From a virus: a DNA stretch of 37,358 bases. The stretch lies in the UHGV virus genome UHGV-0063828. One strand, 5' to 3'. Below are positions 13,552 to 37,308 of this stretch, piece after piece (position 1 is the stretch's first letter; the number at the start of each line of letters is the position of its first letter). The position numbers and the translations under genes are program-made. The notes below the pieces were generated by a model, which saw only the letters and a list, made by a program, of their open reading frames with translations, was not told the origin of the DNA and made no database searches.

Positions 13552-13842
13552 ATGTTCAAATTATCAGAATCACAATTATCAAGAATGTTCCGAAGTGCTC
13601 CTGTATTTTCGGTGGAAGGTGGTAAATCAATTCGTGCTTATCATGAAATTACTACTACCGACGAACAAGGGGTAATGACAGAGACAGAATTTTTATTTTG
13701 TCGTGAGGGAGACTTAAAGCAGGGTGATATTGTCATTGTAGAAAATCAGCGTTTCAAAGTTCAATACGTTAAGCGCAATGGTGACAATACAACTGATTGC
13801 TTTATCACTCTGGCAGGGGGTACACATGCTCGCTACCGTTAA
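13552..13842 (+). CDS. Putative head-tail connector / head completion protein (96 aa)
   Basis: AAGGGGG SD; position immediately after capsid gene and terminator. Confidence 0.45.
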   Translation: MFKLSESQLSRMFRSAPVFSVEGGKSIRAYHEITTTDEQGVMTETEFLFCREGDLKQGDIVIVENQRFKVQYVKRNGDNTTDCFITLAGGTHARYR

Positions 13843-14248
13843 TAATATGCCGAGACTGAAAATCAAACGCGCCTTGCAAGATATTATCGAACAAGATTTA
13901 GGTCTGGCTTTAAACGTAGAACAAACTCAGCAAGGCTTTAGTGATGATGTGGTTTGTTGGATCACCGGAATGAATGAGACTTACACTAGGGTCCGTGGTG
14001 GTAATGCAATGCAAGCTGAATGCGTTATCGAAATGCAATTGTATTCTCAGATTCATGAAACCAAAATTCATGAGGGTATTTGCCAGATAATCCAGATTCA
14101 GCCGGATAACCCACGTTTTAAAGATTTGGGCTTCGCTATTTCAGATATCACTCCAGTAGCTTCTAATACCGATTATGACGATGATTCTAGTGATGGGGGT
14201 ATCGTTGGGACACTTAGCCTTAAATTTTCTTATCTAGCGCGTTTTTAA
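13826..14248 (+). CDS. Putative head-tail connector protein (141 aa)
   Basis: Start placed at ATG 13826 with GGGGG SD, overlapping the previous gene end; positional inference only. Confidence 0.4.
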   Translation: MLATVNNMPRLKIKRALQDIIEQDLGLALNVEQTQQGFSDDVVCWITGMNETYTRVRGGNAMQAECVIEMQLYSQIHETKIHEGICQIIQIQPDNPRFKDLGFAISDITPVASNTDYDDDSSDGGIVGTLSLKFSYLARF

Positions 14249-15164: not shown

Positions 15165-18100
15165 ATGCAGTCGATCCAATTTAAACGAACAAATGTTTCT
15201 GGCAAAAAACCAACGCCGGAACAATTACAGGTCGGTGAGGTAGCAATCAACCTTAAAGACCATGTTATTTTTACCAAAGACCGAGATCATGAAGTAGTTC
15301 AAATCTCTGTTTCTCCTGAAACTCACGCGGCACTAGAATCTAAAGTTGATGCTAACAAACAAGAACTGGATAGCACAATTGCAGTAAATGACCGCAATAT
15401 TCACGCTAAAGTAGATGAAATTAAACAAACTACTGATGCAACCATCGCAGCAAATCACGCAGAAATTAACAATAAAGTTGATGTAATTAAACGCGAAACC
15501 GACGCGACAATCGAGGCCAATAAAAATAAAGCTGCTTCCGATCTTGCTGGTGTTAAAGCTGAATTGTCGGATACCATCAACGCTAATAAAAATGCGGCTG
15601 CTGTAGCAACTCAGGAACTGGACACCCGCATCAATAAAAAAGTTGATGATATTAAATCCCGTACCGATGCAACCATCGCAAGCAATGACAAAGCAATCAA
15701 TGACAAAGTTGATTTGATTAAGGCAGAAACTGACCGCACTATCGCAGCAAATAAAGTCTATGCGGAAAATCAGTTAACTGACACCTACAATAACCTTACT
15801 GGTGTGATTGCAGCCAATAAGCAAGAGGCAGCGGATAACGTCGCGGCATTAACCCGTGATGTTGAAGCCAAAAATACCGCAATTCATAGCAAAGTTGACA
15901 ATAACAAGTCTTACACTGATTCTGAATTGGCACGTTTAGAAAGCCGTATTGATGCAGCCGATGGATCGAGTGATGGCAAGTACATCAAAAAGCACGTAAA
16001 CACTTACACTGATGGCTATTTGCTATCTAAGACCGCAAACTATTTTGATGATCCGGGTGCGCGTAATCTTGATTATTTTGGTGCATTCCGCATGAATGAC
16101 CTGGCGGGTCATATTGCAATGATCTTGCATGTTCCGCATCCATCTGGTGTTAATCATGCTCGTGGCTTTGAGTTCACTTATGGGTCCAATCCACATGCTA
16201 CTGTAAGAACATACGGCTATGATGAATTGGGTCATTTGGCATATTCTCACCGCATGTATCATGAAGGCGATAAACCAACTCCGGCTGAAATTGGCGCATA
16301 TTCGAAAGCAGAAATTGACCGGATGTTCCAGAAGACCATCAACTTTGGTGTAGAAACTGGATGGTTTAAAATTGCTACCGCCTTTATTCCGCAAAATGAT
16401 GGACGTAGCTTGAAAATTAGATTGATTGGTGGAAATGGGTGGAACGTAGGCCAAACTGGACAATGTAATATTATTGAACTTGTTATAAGGACTAGCAACG
16501 GTTCGCCTAAAGGAATTAACTTTGTTGCGTATCATCATGTTTCTGGTTACGAGAATCAATTTTGTGCCATTAATACAAGTGATGACACTTATGATATCTA
16601 TGCATATTACTTCGAATTTACTAATATGGTAATGGCTGAATATCAAGCGTCTACCGGTGTTAATTTAACTGTACTTGATCGACCTGAATATGTAGGCGAA
16701 AAACCTGTAGCTGATCATATCTATGATGCATATACAATACACTCCTTTAACAGTTTCAGTAACCGTGGAACGTTAAATTTTGCTGGAAACCATCAAGGTC
16801 AATATGATATTGAGCATTTGAACGAACAACCGACAAATGCTAAGAAAATGCTGCGTCGCTTCCGTAGTTCTGCTCCTGCCACTATCTGGCACGAAAGTGT
16901 TGATGACCAAAATTATCGTCTTGCTACTGGATATAGCGATGTAAACCCACAATTATTGCTTTCTGCTGTAACCGGGTTACATGTCAAGAGATTAACGTTG
17001 GATGGTGGTGTCACTGGAAATTCTGGTATTGATATTCGTCGAGGACCAAACGAATCAAGCCATTTTAATTTTATGGATTATCGCACTGGTCAAGATGTTC
17101 GTAATGGCTGGTTTGGCTTCGGTGATGGTCAGACCAAAGATTTTATTTGGTGGAACGATAACGGTCAAAACTCGATAAACTTGATTGAAAACGGTGAATT
17201 GCATATTACTGGCGGTAAAGGCCAGAAAATTGTAATGAATAGCGAAGTTGCATTATCTGAAAATGCTCGTTTGGCTGTCAAAGGCGGTAACTATGGCTTA
17301 ATTTTTAGAAATGATGGATCTGACTTCCATATTCTCACCACAGGTCTCGGTGATTCCTTTGGACCGTGGAATACTCGTAGACCATTCAGCTATAATTTTG
17401 CGGATGGTGGATTGGATCTAGGTGGTACTGAAACCGCTCGTTGTTTGCACCTGGGAATTGATGGTAGCACTCGTCTCGAAGACAACCTTTTATTTAAATC
17501 TGGTTCTCGTCAATCTATGGACTATATGGAACTCGTCCATTGGGGTAACAGTAATACAGGACGCAACAACGTTTTGAGTATGCGGGATTCCAAAGGATTT
17601 TTAGCCGAATTTGAACGCACCGGAAACAATAGCATTAAAACTAGATTCTTTGGTGAAACCTTCACTGACGGTACATTATACCTAAATCAGATGAATAATA
17701 GCTCTGAACGATTCTCTATCAACAATTGGGGAAATTCAGAAGTTGGACGCGCGGCAGTAATGGAAATCGGTGATTCCAAAGGTTATCACTTCTATACGGA
17801 ACGTAGAACAGATAACAGTTTGGCGTTTGATGTTGCTGGCGCTTTTACTGTGCATGGACCTAACGGAATAACCATCAAAAACTCAGCGGGTGCACGCCAT
17901 ATCTGGTTTAGAGATGATAGCGATGCAGAAAAGGCTGTTATCTGGGCTACAGATGATGGTCTTTTACATATTCGCAATAACTACGGTGGACATTTTAGTC
18001 ATCACTTCCAGGGTGCAATGATTAAAGTGGGAGAGCGTGTTCCTTATGCCGCAGATCAAGGACTTATCCGTGGTGAGGTTTCTGGTGGTGCATATGTTGC

Positions 18101-18683
18101 ATGGAGAGACCGACCTGCTGGTTTGTTGGTTGACTGTCAACAAAGCGTTGATAGTGCTCATGCTATTTGGAAAGCGGTTGATTGGGGGCGTAACTACATC
18201 GCTGCTATGGACGTTCATTGTCCCGGTGATAGTAATAATACTGCGGCAGCGGTTCTTCATGTTCAGGGTGCTGATTATCAATTCCATGCAAGTGGAGAAT
18301 TTCATGCCACTGGTAACGGAAACTTTAACGATGTTTATATTCGTTCCGATCGTCGTCTGAAAATTAATGTTGAAGACTACGAAGAAAATGCGGTAGATAA
18401 GGTAAATAAACTCAAAGTTAAAACCTACGATAAAGTTAAATCACTTTCTGATCGCGAAGTCATCGCACATGAGATTGGTATTATCGCACAGGATTTACAA
18501 GAGGTATTACCGGAAGCTGTTAAAACCGCAAAAATTGGTGGTCTTGATAACCCAGAAGAAATTTTAACAATTTCAAACTCCGCAGTGAACGCGCTTTTAA
18601 TTAAAGCGGTCCAAGAAATGAGCGAAGAAAATAAACTTCTTCGTGAACGTCTTGCTGCTATTGAGGCTAAATTATTTGGTTAA
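15165..18683 (+). CDS. Side tail fibre with C-terminal intramolecular chaperone (peptidase S74-like) domain
   Basis: N-terminal periodic KVDxIKxxTDATIAxN repeats (4 copies); last ~112 aa SDRRLKINVEDYEENAVDK...LAAIEAKL resembles the self-cleaving chaperone of T5 L-shaped fibre and endosialidases. Confidence 0.85.
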   Translation: MQSIQFKRTNVSGKKPTPEQLQVGEVAINLKDHVIFTKDRDHEVVQISVSPETHAALESKVDANKQELDSTIAVNDRNIHAKVDEIKQTTDATIAANHAEINNKVDVIKRETDATIEANKNKAASDLAGVKAELSDTINANKNAAAVATQELDTRINKKVDDIKSRTDATIASNDKAINDKVDLIKAETDRTIAANKVYAENQLTDTYNNLTGVIAANKQEAADNVAALTRDVEAKNTAIHSKVDNNKSYTDSELARLESRIDAADGSSDGKYIKKHVNTYTDGYLLSKTANYFDDPGARNLDYFGAFRMNDLAGHIAMILHVPHPSGVNHARGFEFTYGSNPHATVRTYGYDELGHLAYSHRMYHEGDKPTPAEIGAYSKAEIDRMFQKTINFGVETGWFKIATAFIPQNDGRSLKIRLIGGNGWNVGQTGQCNIIELVIRTSNGSPKGINFVAYHHVSGYENQFCAINTSDDTYDIYAYYFEFTNMVMAEYQASTGVNLTVLDRPEYVGEKPVADHIYDAYTIHSFNSFSNRGTLNFAGNHQGQYDIEHLNEQPTNAKKMLRRFRSSAPATIWHESVDDQNYRLATGYSDVNPQLLLSAVTGLHVKRLTLDGGVTGNSGIDIRRGPNESSHFNFMDYRTGQDVRNGWFGFGDGQTKDFIWWNDNGQNSINLIENGELHITGGKGQKIVMNSEVALSENARLAVKGGNYGLIFRNDGSDFHILTTGLGDSFGPWNTRRPFSYNFADGGLDLGGTETARCLHLGIDGSTRLEDNLLFKSGSRQSMDYMELVHWGNSNTGRNNVLSMRDSKGFLAEFERTGNNSIKTRFFGETFTDGTLYLNQMNNSSERFSINNWGNSEVGRAAVMEIGDSKGYHFYTERRTDNSLAFDVAGAFTVHGPNGITIKNSAGARHIWFRDDSDAEKAVIWATDDGLLHIRNNYGGHFSHHFQGAMIKVGERVPYAADQGLIRGEVSGGAYVAWRDRPAGLLVDCQQSVDSAHAIWKAVDWGRNYIAAMDVHCPGDSNNTAAAVLHVQGADYQFHASGEFHATGNGNFNDVYIRSDRRLKINVEDYEENAVDKVNKLKVKTYDKVKSLSDREVIAHEIGIIAQDLQEVLPEAVKTAKIGGLDNPEEILTISNSAVNALLIKAVQEMSEENKLLRERLAAIEAKLFG

Positions 18684-20927: not shown

Positions 20928-23357
20928 ATGACAAGACATATAGTAACAATGGAAGGGGATAATAGCGGCTTAAGGAAAAGCACAAATCAAGCAATTGATA
21001 TGCTTGATAACCTTGCGGATAAGGCATCTAAACTTGATTTTTCTGGTGGCTTATCTAGTTTAGGTAGCTCTCTCAGGGGATTGGGTGGATCTGCTAGTCT
21101 TGCCGTTGGTGGTGTTCTAGGTGTCACAGGGGCAATGGTTGGACTGGTTAAAGTTGGTGCTGATTACGTTAAACAGTATTCAGAAGTATCTAAGGCGACC
21201 GGACTCTCGATTGAATCCCTTCAAAGACTAGAAAAGGAATTTTCTGGCACTGGCCTAACAGTTGAAAAATTTGGTGATATCAACAAAGACACCTTAGATA
21301 AAATGGGGGATGCATGGGCTAACGGTGGTGGTATTGCCGATGACTTAGAATCGGTTGGGCTTAAGTTAGAAAACTATGCTCACTTCATGACAGATCCGCA
21401 AGGTGGTATGAAAGCGGCGATCCAAGTGTTCTATGACATGAAGAAAGCCGGAAAATCAATGGCTGAAATCAAATTCATGATGGAATCTTTAGCCAGTGAT
21501 TCAAGCCATATGACCAGCCAGCTTGAGAAATATAATAGTGCTCAAGAAGCGATGACCGCTATCCAGAATCAATCTGTTAAAGTCACCGAAGAAAACGCAA
21601 AGAAATTTGATAAATTCTCTAAGAATATCGATACTTTGGAAAATAACCTGAAAGGCGCAGCTATGACCATTTCTGGTCCTTTGGTTGATAGCTTAAACTG
21701 GTTATTTGACTGGTTTAATATTGATTGGGAAAAGAGTTCTCTATTCAGGGCATTAGACCGACTGAATAAAGAAGGTGCGACCGCTACGGGTGGTATTCTT
21801 AACGCCAACCATAAAGACGCTCAAAAGATTATTGACAAGTACAATAAAGAAAAGCGTTGGAATAATCTGGCAGATTGGGAAAAGGCCGCGATCCGTGGTG
21901 CTGGTGTCGATCCTCGTACTGCTGGCTTTGATGTAGAAGGATTTAAGAAACGTTTTGGTGGGTCTTATAAGAAAAATGGTGCTCTGATTGTCGTAGATGC
22001 TGGTGAACATCTGACACGCAAGGCAGATCCTAACACTGATTTAACTCTACCAAATAAACCAGTAAGACCAGAATCATTGGGTAAATCTGGCAACGAGAAG
22101 AAAGCCGAGGAAGAAGCCAAAAAGAAAGCGGAAGAGGCAGCTAAAAAGGCTAAGGAAGCCGCAGAAAAAGCACAGAAAGCACGCGAGGATGCAATCAAGC
22201 GACTGAATGCACTTGATGTTAAATTGCAAGGGCAAGTTGCAGCGTCTATCACTTCTCAAAATAGCCAGTTGCAAAACAGCTTAAAAGATGTGAACGACGC
22301 GTTAGCTCTGGGCTTAATCTCTCAGGAAGACGCAGCCGCGAAACGCCAGGCGCTAATCGATCAGAATACTGAAAACGTATACAAAATGGTTTTAGGTGCT
22401 GATCCGATTGATGCTCTGAATGCTTTAACACAATTGCAACAAATCAGGGACAACGAGCTAGAAAGCCATAAACGTTTACTTGATGGTAAAGCTATCTCCT
22501 ACGAAGAATATATGCGTCGTGTGAACGATACCGAGCAAAACTATTCTCAGATTGAAAATTCTTTACAGGGAATGGATGGTTATAAAACCAATCAATTAAC
22601 TAGTGGTTATGATTATCAAGACTCAAATAATCCGTTTGCTAAATTTAATGCAATCGATAAAGAGAAATCGGATGCTGAACAAGATTATAAGACCGATAAA
22701 CTCAAGATTGACGGTATTAATGATCCGGCTAAACGGATGGAAGCATTAGAAAAACTCAATGAAAACCATCAAAAACGGATGGCTGCAATTGAAAAGAAAT
22801 ATGCTGATGCTCGCCAGTCAATAGCCGATGATATGTATGGCGGTTTTGCTGCTGCAATGACTCTCTTCGGGCAGGAAAACACTAAAGCTATGCAGATGGC
22901 TTTCACTGCTCATAAAGCATTCTCCATTGGACAAGCGACGGTGAACATGTGGACGGCTGCTACCGATGCATGGAACGATCCGACCAACGTAACCACAGGT
23001 CAAAAAATCGCGGCTGCTGCATTGGCTGTTTCTCAGAACATGGGGAGCATCGCAAACATCAAGTCTACTAACGTTAGCGGTATGGCTCATGATGGTATTG
23101 ATAACATCCCTCGTGAGGGTACATGGTTGCTTGATAAGGGTGAACGAGTAGTTGATCAGCGTACTAACGGTGATTTGAAAGACTTCCTTGCTGCTCAAAA
23201 ATCAGGCGGTGGTAACTCTCAGCCGATTGAAGTTAATGCGCCTTTGAACATTAACGGCAACGTTAATAGCTCAGACAAGATGGTCATGGATGCTATCAAA
23301 CGTCACGCTAAGTTAGTTGCTCAGGCGGTAGAAGACGCACAACGCCGTAAGATGTAA
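20928..23357 (+). CDS. Tail tape measure protein
   Basis: 809 aa, long helical low-complexity regions (KKAEEEAKKKAEEAAKKAKEAAEKAQKAREDAIK); canonical position after chaperone pair. Confidence 0.85.
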   Translation: MTRHIVTMEGDNSGLRKSTNQAIDMLDNLADKASKLDFSGGLSSLGSSLRGLGGSASLAVGGVLGVTGAMVGLVKVGADYVKQYSEVSKATGLSIESLQRLEKEFSGTGLTVEKFGDINKDTLDKMGDAWANGGGIADDLESVGLKLENYAHFMTDPQGGMKAAIQVFYDMKKAGKSMAEIKFMMESLASDSSHMTSQLEKYNSAQEAMTAIQNQSVKVTEENAKKFDKFSKNIDTLENNLKGAAMTISGPLVDSLNWLFDWFNIDWEKSSLFRALDRLNKEGATATGGILNANHKDAQKIIDKYNKEKRWNNLADWEKAAIRGAGVDPRTAGFDVEGFKKRFGGSYKKNGALIVVDAGEHLTRKADPNTDLTLPNKPVRPESLGKSGNEKKAEEEAKKKAEEAAKKAKEAAEKAQKAREDAIKRLNALDVKLQGQVAASITSQNSQLQNSLKDVNDALALGLISQEDAAAKRQALIDQNTENVYKMVLGADPIDALNALTQLQQIRDNELESHKRLLDGKAISYEEYMRRVNDTEQNYSQIENSLQGMDGYKTNQLTSGYDYQDSNNPFAKFNAIDKEKSDAEQDYKTDKLKIDGINDPAKRMEALEKLNENHQKRMAAIEKKYADARQSIADDMYGGFAAAMTLFGQENTKAMQMAFTAHKAFSIGQATVNMWTAATDAWNDPTNVTTGQKIAAAALAVSQNMGSIANIKSTNVSGMAHDGIDNIPREGTWLLDKGERVVDQRTNGDLKDFLAAQKSGGGNSQPIEVNAPLNINGNVNSSDKMVMDAIKRHAKLVAQAVEDAQRRKM

Positions 23358-23406: not shown

Positions 23407-23967
23407 ATGTTCAAATCAAAGAATATTAAAATCACAGATTTTACTCTTAAATCAAAACAGCCTTTCTTCAAGGCGCAATCTATCTCCGGTAAGTTCCAGC
23501 GTCGCTTTACTGGCATCCATTTTTACGAAGCAGAATTTACCGCGAATTACATGGCTCAGGATATTAACGAAGTAAAAGAATTTGTAGCACGTCACCTTTT
23601 TGGTCGTCCTTTTAGTGTGCCACTGTCTTACTTTTCAAAATATACAGGTGATGTACGCCAGATGGTTACGGCTGCTGCTGGTACTGCTCGCGGTGGGCGT
23701 AAGGTGAGAATCTCCAACTTCACCGGAACACTGAAAGCGGGAACTATCATCCAGTTTGAGAACCACAAGAAAATCTACACGATCACCGAAGATGTGAAAT
23801 CAGGTGGTGAAATGAAACTCTTCCCTAACTTGCGTCAGAACGTCCTGGCGGGTGAGGTGATCAAGTATCAGAACGTAGAAGGTGAATTTGTTCTCAAAAC
23901 TGAAAATATCGATTGGAAGATCGCCCAGATTGGCAAGATGAAATTTGAATTAGTGGAGAATGTATAA
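23407..23967 (+). CDS. Minor tail protein (tail-tip, gpM-like position)
   Basis: First gene after tape measure; its only SD-like run (GGGGG) lies in the 3' arm of an upstream hairpin. Confidence 0.55.
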   Translation: MFKSKNIKITDFTLKSKQPFFKAQSISGKFQRRFTGIHFYEAEFTANYMAQDINEVKEFVARHLFGRPFSVPLSYFSKYTGDVRQMVTAAAGTARGGRKVRISNFTGTLKAGTIIQFENHKKIYTITEDVKSGGEMKLFPNLRQNVLAGEVIKYQNVEGEFVLKTENIDWKIAQIGKMKFELVENV

Positions 23968-24620
23968 TGGCAACTATTCAGGAATCATTCAGCAAACTTT
24001 GCACTAATCTGGACTTCATCGAGGTATACAACGACCAGACAGGTCAGAATGTGTCTAGATTGACGCTACCGCAACTTTTCTCCACTGGATCGATGTTTCA
24101 CATTATCGAAGTGATAACAGCGTCAGGGGACGTTCTACGGCTTACTGATGGGTATTTCGATTTGGACTATAACGGATTTACGTATCTCGCAACGGGTGAT
24201 TTTCTTCAAATCTCATCGAATACCGAAGAGAAGGAGATCAACAACAACGGGATTAACGTAACTGTTTCTAACGTTCGCGAAGAATACATTACCCTAATTC
24301 GAAACAAGCAATTCGATAAATCTGATGTAAAAATCGAAATGGTGTTCCTGAACCCTAACACGGGCAAGGTTGAAACCACTTACCCTGTTTTCCGTGGGGT
24401 AGTCGATTCCATCGGGATTAACATCGAACATGAAGATGATGAGTGTAAAAACGAATCAGAATTTCAGCTTAATAGTATCTGGGAAGTTCTAGATAAAAAC
24501 GCTCGAAGTCATGCTTCCGATGGTATCCACCGATCCTATGTTGGAAACGAGAACGATCTATTCTTCTCCCGTGCCGGGAAGTGGAACTCAGAAAGCAAGT
24601 GGCATTCATCGAAGAAATAA
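23967..24620 (+). CDS. Minor tail protein (tail-tip, gpL-like position)
   Basis: ATG overlaps upstream stop (TAATG); GGAGAA SD. Confidence 0.55.
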   Translation: MATIQESFSKLCTNLDFIEVYNDQTGQNVSRLTLPQLFSTGSMFHIIEVITASGDVLRLTDGYFDLDYNGFTYLATGDFLQISSNTEEKEINNNGINVTVSNVREEYITLIRNKQFDKSDVKIEMVFLNPNTGKVETTYPVFRGVVDSIGINIEHEDDECKNESEFQLNSIWEVLDKNARSHASDGIHRSYVGNENDLFFSRAGKWNSESKWHSSKK

Positions 24621-24666
24621 TCCCTTCTCCCTAAGCCTAGTAAATAACAGCATGGAGGTATTCAAC

Positions 24667-25086
24667 ATGCTAAAAACTAGGCTTATCACTGATTACATCA
24701 ATTCTTTAATAGGTCAGGAGTTCGTTCAAGGCGAGAATGATTGCAATCTAATTGCATGTAAGATCATCGATATTCTCGCTGGCACTGACCTATATAATTC
24801 TCTTTATAAAAAATATTCAACTAAAGAAGAAGGCTTGAAAATCTGCAAAGAATTAAGCGGATACACAAACATCCTTCAACCAATTAAGAAACATTTCAAA
24901 TTAGTCACTGATGATTTACAGGACGGCGACTTACTGGTCACAGCCCACAAATTAGGAAACCGCAAATATTATTCCGTAGTTCCTCATTATTCCGGTTATG
25001 GCCTCGTTGAAGAAGATGGTATCTGGATGACCATTCCTGTTTCAGACATTGACTATGAACAAGTTTATAGATTCGGGGGTGAATAA
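24667..25086 (+). CDS. Tail-tip protein with NlpC/P60-like Cys/His motif (gpK-like position)
   Basis: Start placed at ATG 24667 with GGAGGT SD; ENDCNL...DGDLLVTAH...PHY suggests a Cys-His peptidase fold. Confidence 0.5.
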   Translation: MLKTRLITDYINSLIGQEFVQGENDCNLIACKIIDILAGTDLYNSLYKKYSTKEEGLKICKELSGYTNILQPIKKHFKLVTDDLQDGDLLVTAHKLGNRKYYSVVPHYSGYGLVEEDGIWMTIPVSDIDYEQVYRFGGE

Positions 25087-28000
25087 TGGGATTTGAAGTA
25101 TTGGTAGGCGCGGTTATTGCTGGTGCGTCTGCTGGGATGGCTGCTGCTGCAACATTTTCTGTTATGACCGCAGTCGCTATCGGTATGGCTGCTGGTGCAA
25201 TGACCTTGATCGCTTCCACTGTAGGCGCACCAAAAACACCTAAAGTACAAAGCCCAGATAATGCGGTGACACTAGGAACATCAAACGATCCTAAAACAGT
25301 ATTACCCGTTCTTTTCGGTACTACCCGAACTGGTGCAATCTGCGTTTACAAAGCAATTTCACAGCGTGAAAATAACAAACTGGTACAAATTTTTGCTATT
25401 TCAGAAGGTGAGATCGATCACTTTAAAGCACTGCACATCGATAATAAAAACGTTCTCATTAGTCAGAATATGACAATTCGTGATGGTATTCTCGATAAAG
25501 GAAACATTAAAGACGAATACCGCAAAGTGTTAGAAGTCGAGTTTCGCACTGGTAAAAATCCTAACACTGCATTGGATCTGGCTAAACATCATTTGGGCGC
25601 TGATTGGGATGATCGGTATCAGGGTAACGGCATTGCGACCATGTGTATTGTTTTACGTCGTGATGACAAATCTCTTGCTGCTGGTGTTGATATTCTCCAG
25701 CCAAATAGCCAGGTAGCAGTAGACGTTTGCGGCCTTAAAATCCGTAACCTTGAAACCAATGCTATTGAGGCTAGCACTAACGGCGTGGATCAGATTTTCC
25801 ACTACCTAACAAATGAAAAATATGGCTTATCCGTACCAATTGAAAACATTAACGTTGATTCATTCCTGAAAGTACGTAAACAAGTACGCCAGATGGATCT
25901 ACATTCAAACGGTGCATGTGATCCGAACGCCAGCTTTAAAGAGAACTTGACTAATCTTATGCAGACTTTCGGCGGGGTGATGTTCGAATCCTTTGGACGT
26001 ATTACGCTGAAACTGGATGCTCCTGATATTGTTAAGCATACCTTCAATGAAGACAATATCATGATGGGTAAGGTATCACTGAAAACAGGTGGCACTAACG
26101 GTTATTTCAATACCATTAACGCGATGTATCAAGAACCATCAATTGACTATTCAGAGCAAATGCTACGTTATCCGGCTGATGCTGAAAACGATGCTACTGT
26201 TCGCGCAGATGGTCGAATTATTGCTAAGGATGTAGAATATCGTTTCGTTAAGTCTAAAGATCAGATTGATAAACTCGCGAGCATTGAGCGAAATAAATCT
26301 CGTATCACTCAGGTTATCAGCTTTATGACTACTGACGCATTCACTGCCGAAGTTTGGGATGTTATTAGCGTTACCTATGATGAATTGAAACTGAATAATT
26401 CACTTTGGCGCATTACTGCAATTGATCGTTCTATTGATTCTGGTATTGCTGGGATGATGACTATCACCGCTACAGAATATAATTCTCAGGTTTATACTGA
26501 CCTGAACTATGCGGCAACTCCAGACAATAGACCAAGTGGTTTACCGGATTCAATGACAGTACAGAAACCGACTAATTTCAGAATTAAGGCAACTGGTGAG
26601 ACAATCCACGGTAAGAACGTTACTTTAACATGGGATGCACCGGAAGATTTTAACCGCTACGGCTTCCAGATTGATTATCGTGTGAGTGGATCACCTAACT
26701 GGATTAAGCTGGGACAGACTTCACAGCAAATTTTCAATATCAATGCACTGACAAAAGGTCGCTCCTACGATTACCGAGTTTGTGCTTTCGGTATTATTGC
26801 TCGTTCCGAATGGGTGGAACTGGTTAACCAGAATCCAGAAGTTACCTATGAATTGCCGACTCCGGTTATTCGAATCAAAAATCAGGGTAGCACGCCTGGT
26901 ACTTTCGAAGGCAATGATCTGATTATCGAATGGGAAAATCAGCAAGCCTTAGATGTGGTTATCAACGGTGAAACTAACAAGTTTAGTGACCTGTTTGAAG
27001 CCTACATTATCAAGGTAACTAACAAGGCTGGTAAGTCTATTCAGTACCGTACCCGCGATCCTGAATCATGGACCTATACGCTTGATATGAACCAGTTTAA
27101 CGGCCTTTCCCGTGAATTGACGGTAGAAGTATCAGTCAAGGGCTATAACAACTCAGAGAGCGCCCCAGCGCGTTTAGTGGCTATTAACCCACAGCATAAG
27201 CCAATGAAAGGTTTTAGTGCGCGTGGTGGCTTTAATACTGCGTTTGTTAGCTGGGCGGATGACGTAGAACATGACTATGCAGGGTCAATCATCCAGTATG
27301 CAACCGATAACACTTTCTCAGATGCAAGGGCAGTAAGCACGAATAGTGTTAGCCATACTTCCTTTGATTTGGCTGACGGTGATTATTATATCCGTGGTGC
27401 TCACTATGATATTTTCGGTATGGATGATGCTGTTTGGTCTGAACCGTATTTCATGCAAATGAAATCTACCATTAGTTGGGACGATCAGGACAAAGAAGCA
27501 CTGGAAGACCTGATTGGTTTACAAGATCGCTTAGATGAAACCATCGCGGATGCTATTGCTCAAGCTGGCGCTAATGCCGATGCTAAAATTGATGCAATGC
27601 ATAAGCAAATCACTACCGAAACAGGGCAGACGGTCCAAGCCTCAGCCAATACCTTAAAGAGTCTGATTGCTACCAGCGAGCAAGCTAGCTCCACTAAGAT
27701 TGATCAGGTTAAAGCTGAACTGAAAGGCGATATCACCAAAGAAGTTAGCGCATCCGCTACTACCCTGAAACAAGCAATTGCTACCAGTGAGGCAGCAAGC
27801 GCAAGTAAGATTGATCAAGTTCGGGTAGAAATGGATGGCAAGATTGCTGGTGTGAATCAGGAAGCAGATGTAAAAATCGATGCTTTGAAGGGAACCATTA
27901 ACAGCAAATATAATCTGGCGGTTAATGCAGATGGTCGCGTGGCTGGTATTCACATGAGCGCAACCAACGATCCGGCGCAACCGACGAGAATCATCTTTAC

Positions 28001-28862
28001 GGCTGATAAAATCGCGGTAGCTCCACAGAACGGATCGGAAGTATGCCCGTTTGGCATCGAAGATAACAAAGTTTATCTCGATAATGCGATGATTCGTAAT
28101 GCTGCAATTGGCACAGCCCAGATTAGTGATGCTAGTATCACCACGGCTAAGATCGGCACAGCCCAGATTAACGGCGCTCACATCCAACACGCACAGATCG
28201 GAACAGGTCATATCATTGATGGCTCTATCGATAATGCTAAAATTGGTAACTATATCCAGTCTTATAACTGGAATGGTAACGATGGATGGTATATCGGCAA
28301 AGATGGCACTTGTCATTTTAGACACGCTAATATTCGTGGTCATTTGGTGGCTGATTCCGGAGAAATGAACAACGTAACGATTAATTCAAGTTGCCGCATT
28401 TTGGGTATGCTTGATGCTAATCAGGTGCGTGGTGACTTCGTGAAAGCTATTGGTCGTCGATTCCCACATTGGGACGAAAACCCATCATTGGGCTACCCCG
28501 GTTATCCGCAAGGTACAATCACTGTTCGAATTGAAGATGATCACCCGTTTGATCGTCAGATTATCGTTCCGGCTATTAGCTTTGGTGGTCTTAATGCGCG
28601 TGAAGGCTCGAATAACAATACTTACTATGATAACTGTCGCTTGATTGTTCGCAAGAACGGTGCTGAATTATATAACCGTGCATATGGTAGACAGACTGGA
28701 TTGTATAGTGCTGTTATTGATATGCCAGCCGGACACGGACCAGTTACGCTAACTTTTGAAGTAAGTTCAAGCGCAATCAACAACTGGACTCCCAGCACAT
28801 GGATCAGCGATCTTTCTGTAATTGTTACTAAGAAAGCCGCGACTGGTATTTCTGTTTCTTAA
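25086..28862 (+). CDS. Central tail fibre / host specificity protein: gpI-like N-terminal segment fused to gpJ-like body
   Basis: 1258 aa; N-terminal Gly/Ala-rich hydrophobic segment resembles lambda gpI C-terminus as recalled; fibronectin-III-like repeats (LTWDAPEDF...YDYRVCAFG); C-terminus DDHPFDRQIIVP...ATGISVS resembles lambda J as recalled. Confidence 0.85.
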   Translation: MGFEVLVGAVIAGASAGMAAAATFSVMTAVAIGMAAGAMTLIASTVGAPKTPKVQSPDNAVTLGTSNDPKTVLPVLFGTTRTGAICVYKAISQRENNKLVQIFAISEGEIDHFKALHIDNKNVLISQNMTIRDGILDKGNIKDEYRKVLEVEFRTGKNPNTALDLAKHHLGADWDDRYQGNGIATMCIVLRRDDKSLAAGVDILQPNSQVAVDVCGLKIRNLETNAIEASTNGVDQIFHYLTNEKYGLSVPIENINVDSFLKVRKQVRQMDLHSNGACDPNASFKENLTNLMQTFGGVMFESFGRITLKLDAPDIVKHTFNEDNIMMGKVSLKTGGTNGYFNTINAMYQEPSIDYSEQMLRYPADAENDATVRADGRIIAKDVEYRFVKSKDQIDKLASIERNKSRITQVISFMTTDAFTAEVWDVISVTYDELKLNNSLWRITAIDRSIDSGIAGMMTITATEYNSQVYTDLNYAATPDNRPSGLPDSMTVQKPTNFRIKATGETIHGKNVTLTWDAPEDFNRYGFQIDYRVSGSPNWIKLGQTSQQIFNINALTKGRSYDYRVCAFGIIARSEWVELVNQNPEVTYELPTPVIRIKNQGSTPGTFEGNDLIIEWENQQALDVVINGETNKFSDLFEAYIIKVTNKAGKSIQYRTRDPESWTYTLDMNQFNGLSRELTVEVSVKGYNNSESAPARLVAINPQHKPMKGFSARGGFNTAFVSWADDVEHDYAGSIIQYATDNTFSDARAVSTNSVSHTSFDLADGDYYIRGAHYDIFGMDDAVWSEPYFMQMKSTISWDDQDKEALEDLIGLQDRLDETIADAIAQAGANADAKIDAMHKQITTETGQTVQASANTLKSLIATSEQASSTKIDQVKAELKGDITKEVSASATTLKQAIATSEAASASKIDQVRVEMDGKIAGVNQEADVKIDALKGTINSKYNLAVNADGRVAGIHMSATNDPAQPTRIIFTADKIAVAPQNGSEVCPFGIEDNKVYLDNAMIRNAAIGTAQISDASITTAKIGTAQINGAHIQHAQIGTGHIIDGSIDNAKIGNYIQSYNWNGNDGWYIGKDGTCHFRHANIRGHLVADSGEMNNVTINSSCRILGMLDANQVRGDFVKAIGRRFPHWDENPSLGYPGYPQGTITVRIEDDHPFDRQIIVPAISFGGLNAREGSNNNTYYDNCRLIVRKNGAELYNRAYGRQTGLYSAVIDMPAGHGPVTLTFEVSSSAINNWTPSTWISDLSVIVTKKAATGISVS

Positions 28863-28879
28863 AATTTAATTCTAATAAT

Positions 28880-28921
28880 TAATCCCGCTTAATTCTTTTG
28901 AGTTAGGCGGGATTATTTTTA
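28880..28921 (+). terminator. Intrinsic terminator after central tail fibre gene
   Basis: AATCCCGC...GCGGGATT stem followed by ATTTTTAT. Confidence 0.55.
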
Positions 28922-34359: not shown

Positions 34360-36039
34360 TTAAATTCCAAATTCCTGTAATGGACCTGGTATTTCCTCTT
34401 CTGGTTTCCAGTTCTTATCTGTCAGCATGTCTAAACATGGATGCAAAACAAGCCCGTTACTTTCCAGAATCTGCCTATCATTGATAGTTTTCAAATCAAT
34501 GAATATCCGGCCTTTCCTCGTTCCTCTTGAATTTTCTATTACAACTCTCTGGGTTTTTCCATCGATGTATTCCAGTACAAACAAGTTTTTGTTTCTGTCA
34601 ATCCTGCTACACCCGATCCGCTTTAGAGCTTGCTTAATCTTAAACCGGACCTTTAGTCGTTCCTCGTTGTAAACATCTTCTAAATCAAATTCTGCGAGCT
34701 TCTCCCAGCCTTGAGAGTCAACAGAATACATTTCCTCTTCTGCCATCTTGATCTGATTGTAGAGTGTTTCACGCTCGCTATTGAGGGTAGTAATCTGATC
34801 GGCTAGTTCCTTCGTTGCTCCTGTCATAGCAGAAAGGGCAATCAGGTTATCAATCTTGCGTGATATCTCATCAACCTGTACTTTCAACGCCGGAACCGGA
34901 TTAGCCTTATCCTCAGCAATCCAGATTTTATCAGCCAGCAATTGCAATACAGCTTTCTCTAATTGATCACCTCGAAAACTCCAGTTTGGATGCTCGCAAT
35001 CAAGTCTACGTGAACGGGTCGCATCACATGTATAACGATACTGGTCAGAACGTTTGTTCGTTCCCTTCACTTTAACCATAGCGCAACCGCAATGATCACA
35101 TTTCAATAGGCCAATACCACTAAGCAGGGGGATCGGTTTAACTTCTTCCTTGTCTCCAAAGTTCCATGCTCTAGCACCAATATTTTTCTTAAGGTGATAG
35201 AACGTAGCATCATCAATAACACGAGGGTAATAATCCTTTAACTCATAGTTAACGCCATCTACAGAGACCTCCTTGATACCAATCAAAGCGCGGGTATGAA
35301 ACAACCTTTCAACCATTGCCCGTGACCATTTTGAATGCTTCTTATTACTAACCGCTGGTGGTGGTGCATATGTCTCGTTAAGGTGATCCAGTATTTCGGC
35401 GGTTGAACGTCCATTCTTCCGTAATTCCACAATCTCCTGAACAACAGGGAAGAAGACCGGATGAGGCAACACATAACCGGAAGTGGTATCAGTCCACCAC
35501 ATATTCTTTCCAACTTCCTCGATTGCCACTGCCGGATTCTGGGGATTTTCTTGATGGGCTTTAATCTTAATCAGTGCGCTTGAGTTAGTACGATTGCGCT
35601 TAGTCTGGCTTTCCTCATTACCACGGATGAATAAAAGGATGGAGAACATCAGGTCCATCGGATTAGCGGTAACAGTATCCAGCGAGTAGATCTTGTTATC
35701 CATGCCAGTAACAATGGTTATCCCCCTACGGATTATTGAAAGGAATAACTCCTGCGCACTGACAATATCGGCACGGGATAAACGGTCCAAGTTTTCAATG
35801 AATAGCCAGCTACCAACAGGAACGGATCTACCAATTGCATCAAGGAAACGAGATAGCGCCCCTGTTTTAGAGTTAGCACCTTTAAACGCAGATACACCCA
35901 GATCCTGATAATCATTTACCAGTTCTAAGTCATACTTTGCCGCAATCTCTCTCGCCATCCTGATTTGTCGTTCATAACTCGAACCATCACTCTGACGCAT
36001 AGACGAGAAGCGAATATACGAATACAGTTTAGTTTTCAT
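34360..36039 (-). CDS. Large serine recombinase (integrase)
   Basis: N-terminal resolvase-type catalytic domain (YSYIRFSSMRQ, ENLDRLSR); cysteine-rich zinc ribbon (CDHCGC...YTCDA...CEH); C-terminal coiled coil; ~559 aa from ATG at 36039. Confidence 0.85.
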   Translation of the reverse strand: MKTKLYSYIRFSSMRQSDGSSYERQIRMAREIAAKYDLELVNDYQDLGVSAFKGANSKTGALSRFLDAIGRSVPVGSWLFIENLDRLSRADIVSAQELFLSIIRRGITIVTGMDNKIYSLDTVTANPMDLMFSILLFIRGNEESQTKRNRTNSSALIKIKAHQENPQNPAVAIEEVGKNMWWTDTTSGYVLPHPVFFPVVQEIVELRKNGRSTAEILDHLNETYAPPPAVSNKKHSKWSRAMVERLFHTRALIGIKEVSVDGVNYELKDYYPRVIDDATFYHLKKNIGARAWNFGDKEEVKPIPLLSGIGLLKCDHCGCAMVKVKGTNKRSDQYRYTCDATRSRRLDCEHPNWSFRGDQLEKAVLQLLADKIWIAEDKANPVPALKVQVDEISRKIDNLIALSAMTGATKELADQITTLNSERETLYNQIKMAEEEMYSVDSQGWEKLAEFDLEDVYNEERLKVRFKIKQALKRIGCSRIDRNKNLFVLEYIDGKTQRVVIENSRGTRKGRIFIDLKTINDRQILESNGLVLHPCLDMLTDKNWKPEEEIPGPLQEFGI

Positions 36040-36051
36040 ACCATTTCCAAA

Positions 36052-36088
36052 CAAAAACGCCCCTACCGTGTATTATAACGATAGGGGC
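36052..36088 (-). terminator. Minus-strand terminator between secreted-protein gene and integrase start; loop contains TATAAT
   Basis: On minus strand GCCCCTA...TAGGGGC stem followed by GTTTTTGTTT; candidate integrase promoter overlaps. Confidence 0.45.
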
Positions 36089-36657: not shown

Positions 36658-36927
36658 TTACTTCTTGCTAATAAACTCTTTGTAGATAAAATCTAAGACT
36701 TCCTTTAACTTCTTATCGGTGTCAATCATCACCGGAAGTTCTTCTTTAATATCGCGAGGAAGATACACATTACCTTTCCAGAACAAGCAACCACATTGAG
36801 CAATCGAATAGCTGAACATCCATTCACAATCTTGTTCTATCTCCCAGAATCTAACCTGCTCATCTTCGAGTTGAAGTTCGATTCCACGGCGGCGAGCATA
36901 GTTATGGATTGCTTTGGTAATGTTCAT
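36658..36927 (-). CDS. Hypothetical protein (89 aa) abutting attR
   Basis: GAGAGGATA SD; start lies ~30 bp from the host junction, so its promoter must lie in host DNA in the integrated state. Confidence 0.5.
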
Positions 36928-36939
36928 CGTTGTATCCTC

Positions 36940-36975
36940 TCGTGTTATTGTGGGTACATGATATTAGGGAATCCC
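36940..36975. other. Approximate prophage-host junction (attR) inside ycdX
   Basis: Phage gene SD at 36928-36936; YcdX-like coding sequence recognisable from ~36966 (GGGAATCCCAAATATGAAAT); exact crossover cannot be set without the uninterrupted host allele. Confidence 0.55.
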
Positions 36976-37308
36976 AAATATGAAATAGATGTGAAAGCCG
37001 TTGCTGAAGCAGCCGCGAAACATCAGGTGGCGCTGGAAATCAATAATTCTTCATTTTTACACTCACGTAAGGGCAGTGAAGACAACTGTCGTGCGGTAGC
37101 CGCAGCGGTACGTGATGCTGGAGGTTGGGTGGCATTAGGCTCGGATTCTCACACCGCGTTTACCATGGGGGAATTTGAAGAGTGTCTTAAAATCCTCGAC
37201 GCGGTAGATTTTCCGCCAGAGCGCATTTTGAATGTTTCGCCGCGCCGCTTACTGAACTTCCTTGAATCTCGCGGTATGGCACCGATTGCGGAATTTGCAG
37301 ACCTTTAA
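36961..37308 (+). pseudogene. ycdX: 3' remnant of host PHP-family phosphoesterase gene ycdX, truncated by prophage insertion
   Basis: Translation [32 protein letters not shown]...PIAEFADL matches the YcdX C-terminus as recalled; the upstream part of the track ORF (36796-36960) is phage-derived read-in. Confidence 0.7.

Follow-up and report, generated by a model that had tools for sequence, protein, structure and literature searches.

In phage lambda, residues 101-223 of gpI comprise a pair of hydrophobic helices (H1 and H2), a plug in the lumen (residues 159-175, as defined in PMC11101478) and strands that augment the sheets of the gpJ hub (PMC11101478, PMC10721106). The gpI trimer grips the C-terminus of the tape measure protein, with release upon LamB binding (PMC11101478, PMC10721106). 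In the gene transfer agent RcGTA, the Hub protein (g13) carries the HDI domain and the Megatron protein (g15) consists of an N-terminal iris/penetration domain followed by HDII-HDIV (PMC7296036; 10.1101/2022.09.20.507954). Fusions of the gpI family (TAPI) with TAPJ, as well as TAPK versions possessing NlpC/P60 only, were recorded by Iyer et al. 2006 (PMC1779556). The stretch analysed here, UHGV virus genome UHGV-0063828 (37,358 nt in full, referred to as the window), is a prophage adjoining ycdY and carrying a serine recombinase. Its open reading frame (ORF) at 25086..28862 (+) encodes a protein of 1258 amino acids (aa), hereafter the tip protein; the same 3777-nt gene is annotated by RefSeq as 'phage tail tip protein' in related Escherichia coli prophages. 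An earlier description made without database searches (the sequence-only reading) had placed exactly these boundaries and proposed a gpI-gpJ fusion, with fibronectin type III (FN3)-like repeats and a lambda J-like receptor-binding end. The tip protein is a mosaic of known parts, and in a temperate siphophage of E. coli it likely serves as second hub chain and central tail fibre, bearing a gpI-like N-terminal plug in an unsplit form.

N-terminus, hub body and fibre shaft of the tip protein

Residues 8-105 of the tip protein were aligned by BLASTP to lambda gpI 120-221 with 27% identity (E=5e-5). The alignment took in, one after the other, two hydrophobic stretches rich in Gly and Ala, the pair APK-TPKVQSPDN and APKARTPRIQTTDN, and the pair LPVLFGTTRTG and LPVLYGEMRVG. 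A hidden Markov model (HMM) of 61 N-termini from distant relatives, run on 587 lambda ORFs, found gpI (121-221) as its sole match (E=3.1e-8, the next ORF scoring 0.03). In addition, the hhalign comparison of the N-terminus profile with 11 diverse gpI C-halves reached a probability of 96.4% (P=1e-9) over 36 columns, pairing residues 60-95 with gpI 176-211, while the reversed and 30 column-shuffled controls remained at or below 2.4%. For the gpI profile, ten diverse gpI genes were taken singly, since the search with the lambda locus gave 80 near-identical copies. The leader was colinear with gpI in both the BLASTP and hhalign alignments, and its hydropathy profile ran parallel to that of gpI 100-152. 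The resemblance of the first ~90 residues to the C-terminal half of gpI, proposed in the sequence-only reading, was borne out by these three comparisons.

Among the features of gpI, the tip protein possessed those of the C-terminal part (TAPI-C), i.e. the hydrophobic helices, the plug and the LPVLYG strands. The ubiquitin-like domain of the N-terminal half was not found: a profile of that half searched against every ORF of the window gave a best E=0.43 (lambda control 1.7e-26), and there was no match to Pfam Lambda_tail_I (PF06805). No separate ORF for a stand-alone gpI-like protein of ~200 aa was present between the K-like and J-like genes, the corresponding segment being the N-terminus of the 1258-aa protein. 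PF06805 itself spans only gpI 14-97, outside the C-terminal half.

The hub body opens with the strand AISEGEIDHF, aligned to gpJ 29-38 (AISEGPIEGP). BLASTP of the tip protein against gpJ showed nothing significant outside the C-terminus, and the single sequence scored 19.5 bits with Pfam Phage-tail_3 (PF13550), below the cut-off of 23. At the profile level, a 153-sequence profile of residues 97-500 matched gpJ 37-504 as the only lambda ORF (E=2.5e-30); residues ~97-500 and the hub domains HDII-HDIV of gpJ are homologous. Alignment against lambda I and J therefore recovered significant similarity to both proteins, that of the body being detected with profiles only. In the PDB, the family profile scored highest with T5 pb3 (E=1e-75, profile 74-619 aligned to pb3 263-896), lambda gpJ scoring lower (7e-34). 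Foldseek of an AlphaFold2 (AF2) monomer model of residues 1-540 (overall predicted local distance difference test, pLDDT, 81; ~90 for the strands at 75-91) retrieved pb3 of DT57C/T5 (~1e-26, TM 0.6), lambda gpJ (1e-17) and the RcGTA megatron (1e-15), as well as the hub proteins of T1, Chi and JBD30. On both the profile (1e-75 against 7e-34) and the fold scores (1e-26 against 1e-17), T5 pb3 resembles the hub body more closely than lambda gpJ does. The J-like body of the sequence-only reading thus stands as homologous to gpJ, with pb3 as its nearer relative. The lambda-specific Pfam domains FNIII-A_GpJ, Ig_J and Ig_J_second, all matched by lambda J, had no match in the tip protein, and NCBIfam NF049904 (lambda_TipJ) scored 213 bits against a cut-off of 1950, from the C-terminus only.

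The junction between the two parts was compared across the three systems. Residues 65-96 of the tip protein correspond to the C-terminal strands of gpI (LPVLYGEMRVGSRVVSQEIS) and to T5 pb3 263-285 (FIPVVYGVQKIPGIPIF). In the tip protein, the strands 72-VLPVLFGTTRTG...AISEGEIDHF are contiguous, as they are in pb3 (263-FIPVVYGVQKIPG...AFAEGEIDGF), where they lie ~30 residues past the plug tip at 233-236. In lambda, by contrast, gpI 188-VLPVLYGEMRVG ends one gene and gpJ 29-AISEGPIEGP starts the next. Since the lambda I/J boundary separates two strands (LPVLYG... / ...AISEGPIEG) whose counterparts run on without a break here and in pb3, the tip protein represents the unsplit form rather than a peculiar fusion, and lambda looks like the split form.

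Downstream of the hub body, the first FN3 repeat passed the Pfam cut-off when queried alone (residues 486-586; 25.5 bits against 25), which agrees with the FN3-like repeats of the sequence-only reading. Titin FN3 matches were also obtained in this region, and a profile alignment to both FNIII domains of T5 pb3 supported the second repeat; the second and third segments queried alone had no Pfam or PDB sequence match. The Ala/Lys/Asp-rich segment that follows is, by position, the analogue of the lambda gpJ AHS, and residues 842-1013 were matched by phmmer to the T1 tail tip protein (9l9p_S, E=1.5e-17). The central straight fibre was identified by PF09327 (Phage_Tail_Tip) at residues 931-1027 (E=1.3e-18, 67.6 bits against a cut-off of 22).

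Two other explanations of these data were weighed, together with the observations that count against the proposed identity. The long ORF could be an artefact of this sequence, in which a lost stop codon or a frameshift joined two genes; nothing beyond the unusual length speaks for it, and it is almost certainly wrong, since no fewer than 54 complete E. coli genomes contain the same unbroken ORF of 1248-1258 aa, and hundreds of distant relatives align with it colinearly, starting at their own N-termini. An assembly artefact is ruled out by this recurrence of the intact ORF across complete E. coli genomes. The similarity of the N-terminus to gpI could also be merely compositional, the segment being a generic membrane anchor or signal-like leader and LPVLFG the first hub strand, unrelated to gpI. 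The helices are indeed low-complexity and Gly/Ala-rich, no curated model backs the link as Lambda_tail_I misses that part of gpI, and the reverse search, with the gpI C-half HMM against the ORFs of the window, fails once composition bias is corrected (domain E=0.07, not significant; E=5e-4 uncorrected). However, the hhalign score stems from the non-hydrophobic 36-column strand region and vanishes when the profile is reversed or shuffled, and the family HMM matches gpI alone among the lambda ORFs. Moreover, the order helix-helix-APK..TP..Q..DN-LPVLYG is colinear with gpI, the gene order (K-like, I-like, J-like) puts the segment where gene I stands, and the same strand comes straight after the plug in T5 pb3. 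A purely compositional origin is thus considered improbable, and, judged by alignment, the gpI link is real at the profile level, resting mainly on the ~36-residue strand region.

Besides the failed reverse search, several points weigh against the proposed identity of the tip protein. The sequence tie to gpI is carried by ~36 strand columns and colinear low-complexity helices, and the AF2 pLDDT is <50 for residues 1-58, with no confident structure for this part. The third FN3 repeat is suggested by its sequence pattern, and residues 796-930 would be helical or coiled-coil in character. At the receptor-binding end, no domain with a known receptor is nearer than ~55% identity. With these points taken into account, the tip protein still appears likely to be a second hub chain and central fibre with a gpI-like plug.

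Building on the homologies observed in sequence and fold, the order of domains and genes, a leader conserved throughout the family and a receptor-binding end exchanged as a module, a mode of action can be proposed in which the lumen location, plug role, membrane insertion and opening mechanism are modelled on the lambda, T5 and RcGTA structures. Three tip proteins and three HDI proteins (23967-24620) would form a closed cone beneath the ring of distal tail proteins, the N-terminal ~96 residues taking the role of the separate gpI of lambda. The two hydrophobic helices and the short plug segment would occupy the lumen of the hub, where they would obstruct the channel and retain the tape measure protein by its C-terminus, and the LPVLFG strands would be stitched into the hub's own β-sheets. 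From there the chain runs on through HDII-HDIV, FN3, a likely helical shaft and the β-prism to the Ig-like receptor-binding domain of lambda-J type. On contact of this domain with an outer-membrane protein, most likely a porin, binding would twist the fibre, peel off the FN3 strings and open the hub, freeing the hydrophobic leader to reach the outer membrane and letting the tape measure protein and the DNA exit. The roles drawn upon are those that publications assign to the plug and H1/H2 of gpI, to the plug of pb3 and to the iris/penetration domain of Megatron (PMC11101478, PMC10721106, 10.1101/2022.09.20.507954, PMC7296036).

Family context and comparison with described hubs

An exhaustive HMMER search retrieved 1403 hub clusters at E<=1e-3, most of which align from their own N-termini. 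In the set of the 147 nearest cluster representatives that were 400 aa or longer, a hydrophobic Gly/Ala-rich leader occurred in 113 and the motif P-x-h-[YF]-G in 82, so that the 'fusion' of I and J is what a very large hub family ordinarily shows and not special to this gene. The sequence-only reading was therefore right in finding the gpI C-half and a gpJ-type hub on one chain, but not in singling out this arrangement. When homologues were sought with the 130-aa leader, nothing but fragments of this same protein came up, and a less exhaustive search with residues 1-500 gave only 9 close relatives. Among annotated phages, Escherichia phage DCP80 (PQ671644, L002 8917-12675) had the hub homologue nearest in sequence (41% identity). 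That record, 141 kb long and filed under Straboviridae/Gaprivervirus, contains a siphophage-like tail block entirely annotated as hypothetical, and may be misfiled or chimeric. Burkholderia phage phiBtTUL1a (L087) was considered as another I-J fusion and rejected, because its I and J translate in different frames; its annotation starts 'host specificity protein J' within the region of the gpI reading frame, and this J start appears mis-annotated.

As in RcGTA, the hub is composed of two chains, with HDI on a separate upstream protein carrying a Gp84_N/DUF2163 attachment domain, and a small NlpC/P60-type gene (here by predicted fold) lies between the two hub genes. The tip protein also resembles Megatron in having a hydrophobic N-terminal segment followed by HDII-HDIV (fold match to 6tba_8A, E=1e-15, TMt 0.62). 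Unlike Megatron, it continues into FN3, shaft, β-prism and a lambda-type receptor-binding domain instead of a fibre-binding domain; the HDI protein lacks the 4-Cys Fe-S site of its RcGTA counterpart, and the element is an E. coli prophage and not a gene transfer agent.

T5/DT57C pb3 is the closest hub by both profile (E=1e-75) and fold (~1e-26, TM 0.6): the IPVVYG...AEGEI strands and the two FNIII domains align residue by residue, and the pb3 plug precedes the IPVVYG strand. In contrast to the tip protein, pb3 unites HDI and a folded plug hairpin with the rest of the hub in one polypeptide, and the receptor binder (pb5) and fibre (pb4) of T5 are separate. Here HDI is on another protein, the hydrophobic leader is the plug equivalent, and the tip protein itself also carries the fibre and the receptor-binding domain. 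Consistently, the profile match starts at pb3 263, and pb3 1-262 had no counterpart in the tip protein chain.

The gpI C-half followed by gpJ gives the same order as the tip protein, i.e. H1/H2, plug, strands, hub domains, FN3, shaft, β-prism and Ig-like receptor-binding domain. Unlike in the tip protein, the plug part of lambda is a separate protein with a ubiquitin-like N-domain, and gpK carries a JAB domain; the JAB domain of gpK and the ubiquitin-like domain of gpI are both absent here. The lambda insertion in HDII (FNIII-A, ~gpJ 65-215) and the Ig_J domains were likewise not detected in the tip protein. JAB and the ubiquitin-like domain were predicted in 2006 to be one processing unit (PMC1779556), with which their joint absence would be consistent. 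It is conceivable, and we propose it only tentatively, that this lineage is a natural 'unsplit' control for lambda, in which case the JAB/ubiquitin-like unit may have arisen only for the split-off plug and the alleles of the tip gene described below, at least two in number and lambda-type at their ends, may track polymorphic OmpC variants.

These comparisons tidy the annotation of the gene as a megatron/pb3-type hub with central fibre, not an odd I-J fusion, for which LamB is not to be assumed as the receptor. They also establish, at the sequence level, that one and the same hub part is represented by the C-half of gpI in lambda, by the leader in hubs of the megatron type and by the surroundings of the plug in T5 pb3, and they offer a simple genetic system in which to study the need, if any, for a plug on a chain of its own and the function of the JAB/ubiquitin-like pair.

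Receptor-binding end and candidate receptors

The C-terminus of the tip protein (residues 1073-1257) shared 41% identity with gpJ 952-1131 (E=3e-34, BLASTP), and residues 1123-1258 gave a full-length match to PF12421 (Ig_GpJ_C; E=2.1e-35, 122 bits against a cut-off of 26), in agreement with the likeness to the lambda J receptor-binding region noticed in the sequence-only reading. The best match among solved structures was 'A8 gpJ 713' (9wca; phmmer E=9e-51, compared with 1e-35 for lambda). Pairwise identities of the receptor-binding domains were ~50% between the tip protein and A8, 41% between the tip protein and lambda, and 41-42% between A8 and lambda. A8 is a lambda gpJ whose C-terminal part derives from a natural gpJ variant of an E. 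coli phage (PMC11338833, Brodel et al. 2024); in lamB/ompC deletion strains, its DNA delivery proceeds through OmpC upon complementation with ompC (PMC11338833). The tip protein and A8 gpJ (PDB 9wca/9wcb) share the C-terminal framework NNWTP..ISDL..V.KK..GIS.S, whereas their loop regions differ with insertions and deletions (indels), and the use of OmpC is experimental for A8 only. The closest phage receptor-binding domains were at most 55% identical, and no receptor is on record for them here. The specificity region of lambda (gpJ 960-1132, loops L1-L4) contains indel hot spots, and a few substitutions and indels in it are enough to change the specificity (PMC6646904); relative to lambda, the tip protein had indels in the loop regions of this part.

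The receptor-binding end is exchanged as a module. Identity to protein P0016 dropped from ~76% to ~20-25% at residues 1075-1100, and this breakpoint coincided with the onset of similarity to lambda-type J proteins (1067-1073). Across 150 hub relatives, the lambda-type receptor-binding domain was detectable, weakly, in one, compared with 39 for the β-prism and 80 for the FN3 region. A second allele of the tip gene, found in E. coli O55:H7 DEC5A (L096 1101-4847), encodes 1248 aa that are 96-100% identical to the tip protein up to about residue 1100 and 54-66% identical thereafter, with indels. The body of the gene (25086-28199) was present in 55 complete E. coli genomes, of which only ~19 carried the allele of the window at >=90% nucleotide identity; E. 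coli TO6, ETEC1703 and ETEC1717 have this allele. The swappable end of ~190 residues and the DEC5A allele are candidate specificity modules for engineered lambda-type delivery particles, such particles having already been built with A8 and 1A2 gpJ.

The receptor is probably an outer-membrane protein of the porin type. LamB, suggested in the sequence-only reading and used by lambda, would be compatible with the shared Pfam receptor-binding family, the 41% identity to gpJ over 186 residues and the E. coli host. Nevertheless, the OmpC-using A8 gpJ is clearly closer (E=9e-51 against 1e-35; ~50% against 41% identity), and A8 and lambda are themselves 41-42% identical yet differ in porin, so that an identity of 41% is uninformative on the receptor. 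The few changes in 960-1132 that suffice to shift the specificity of lambda (PMC6646904), set beside the loop-region indels of the tip protein, also argue against LamB, as does the circulation of two divergent alleles on the same body. LamB is accordingly regarded as unlikely, and this part of the sequence-only reading was not upheld. Two divergent alleles would sit more easily with a receptor that is polymorphic, as OmpC is, than with LamB, which is conserved. Recognition of OmpC or another general porin, in the manner of A8/434-type gpJ ends, is a possible alternative, suggested by the DNA delivery of A8 gpJ 713 through OmpC (PMC11338833) and by the difference in tip alleles between strains. 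It is tempered by an identity to A8 of only ~50% with the differences concentrated in loop regions, by the lack of recorded receptors for the closest natural phage domains (<=55%), and by the fact that other β-barrel receptors could also serve. Overall, a porin receptor is plausible with OmpC somewhat favoured, the sequence identities being too low to single out one receptor.

Tail gene neighbourhood and prophage

The gene order distal tail protein, HDI hub protein, NlpC/P60-like protein and tip protein is that of RcGTA g12-g15 and of lambda M-L-K-I-J (Table 1). The gene preceding the tip gene, whose true start is at 24667, encodes a protein matching Pfam DUF6950 (E=3e-12) and is the positional analogue of lambda gpK and RcGTA g14. 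No NLPC_P60 sequence match was obtained, and BLASTP against gpK and the PDB sequence search were also empty. The AF2 model (pLDDT 92) had as top folds the NlpC/P60 endopeptidases MepS, a T. thermophilus endopeptidase, RipD and LytE, with TM ~0.55 and weak E-values (0.015-0.05), the relationship being visible by fold search only. In the family alignment, C26 was invariant (GENDCN) and H94 nearly invariant (DGDLLVT.H). Based on the model, the protein has an NlpC/P60-like fold and is a predicted peptidase; the NlpC/P60-like character ascribed to this gene in the sequence-only reading is thereby matched, without a JAB domain. The ATG of the tip gene shares its A with the TAA stop of the DUF6950 gene (TAATG overlap) and is preceded by the Shine-Dalgarno-like stretch GGGGGTGA; the two genes are translationally coupled.

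The HDI protein matched PF09931 (Phage_phiJL001_Gp84_N, a baseplate hub attachment domain) at 26.4 bits, just above the cut-off of 26, and phrog_2048 (E=1.6e-27). It had no PDB sequence match, and it possesses two cysteines only and thus lacks the 4-Cys Fe-S site of lambda gpL and RcGTA g13. By analogy with lambda and T5 (PMC10721106; 10.1101/2022.09.20.507954), the C-terminus of the tape measure protein is expected to be retained by the plug. In related prophages, a NUMOD3 (homing-endonuclease-like) gene lies between the HDI and DUF6950 genes (ETEC1703, L003 22702-23472; DEC5A, L096 1-635), and the window has none at the matching spot (24620-24667).

Table 1. Features of the tip protein and of the surrounding tail genes in the window.
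Feature	Residues	Position	Strand	Basis or remark
Tape measure protein		20928..23357	+	phrog_13674, E=1.4e-65
Distal tail protein		23407..23967	+	phrog_1302, E=1.5e-16; weak Pfam match to pb9 B-domain
Hub HDI protein, 217 aa, analogue of lambda gpL and RcGTA g13		23967..24620	+	PF09931, phrog_2048
DUF6950 protein, 139 aa, NlpC/P60-like fold, without JAB domain		24667..25086	+	Pfam; AF2 model and fold search
Gly/Ala-rich hydrophobic leader, two hydrophobic segments (~4-24, 26-46)	1-47	25086..25226	+	Counterpart of gpI helices H1/H2
Plug-like segment APKTPKVQSPDNAVTLG	48-64	25227..25277	+	BLASTP-aligned to gpI plug APKARTPRIQTTDNGKQ (gpI ~156-175)
β-strand region with LPVLFGTTRTGAICVYKAIS	65-96	25278..25373	+	hhalign, pb3 profile alignment, AF2 strands
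Baseplate-hub domains HDII, HDIII, HDIV	97-485	25374..26540	+	Hub profile, PDB profile match, Foldseek
FN3-like repeats	486-795	26541..27470	+	First confirmed, second supported, third putative
Ala/Lys/Asp-rich repeat segment, likely α-helical shaft	796-930	27471..27875	+	Lies between FN3 and Phage_Tail_Tip
β-prism central straight fibre, pentapeptide-like repeat	931-1067	27876..28286	+	Pfam Phage_Tail_Tip
Lambda-J-type hinge and Ig-like receptor-binding domain	1068-1258 + stop	28287..28862	+	Exchangeable specificity module
Strong intrinsic terminator, ends tail operon		28880-28915	+	16-bp stem, 6 GC pairs, T-run

The window has a low GC content (~42%). The prophage was rare, its tail-side 22 kb (15000-37358) being covered to at least 80% in 16 of the 5426 complete E. 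coli genomes, and megablast of the tip gene against the phage collection gave no match. In one genome (NZ_CP024134.1, E. coli 14EC017, hit H195), the tip gene was broken by an IS1A element. The final part of the window was matched in 5411 of the 5426 genomes and marks the integration site near the csg locus; a large serine recombinase is encoded at this edge of the prophage, beside the host gene ycdY (34360-36054, -, and 36796-37308, +).

Two further observations concern the remainder of the window. A 91-nt tRNA-Gln (anticodon ttg) was called by ARAGORN at 14013-14103 (-), within the plus-strand ORF 13778-14248, and is probably a false positive. Finally, a fibre-like protein of 1172 aa (15165-18683, +) possessed a Pfam Gp34_trimer domain (642-743) and a C-terminal Peptidase_S74 intramolecular chaperone (1061-1120); its gene sits between the head genes and the tail-tube gene, an odd place for a fibre, and the product may be a side or head fibre.

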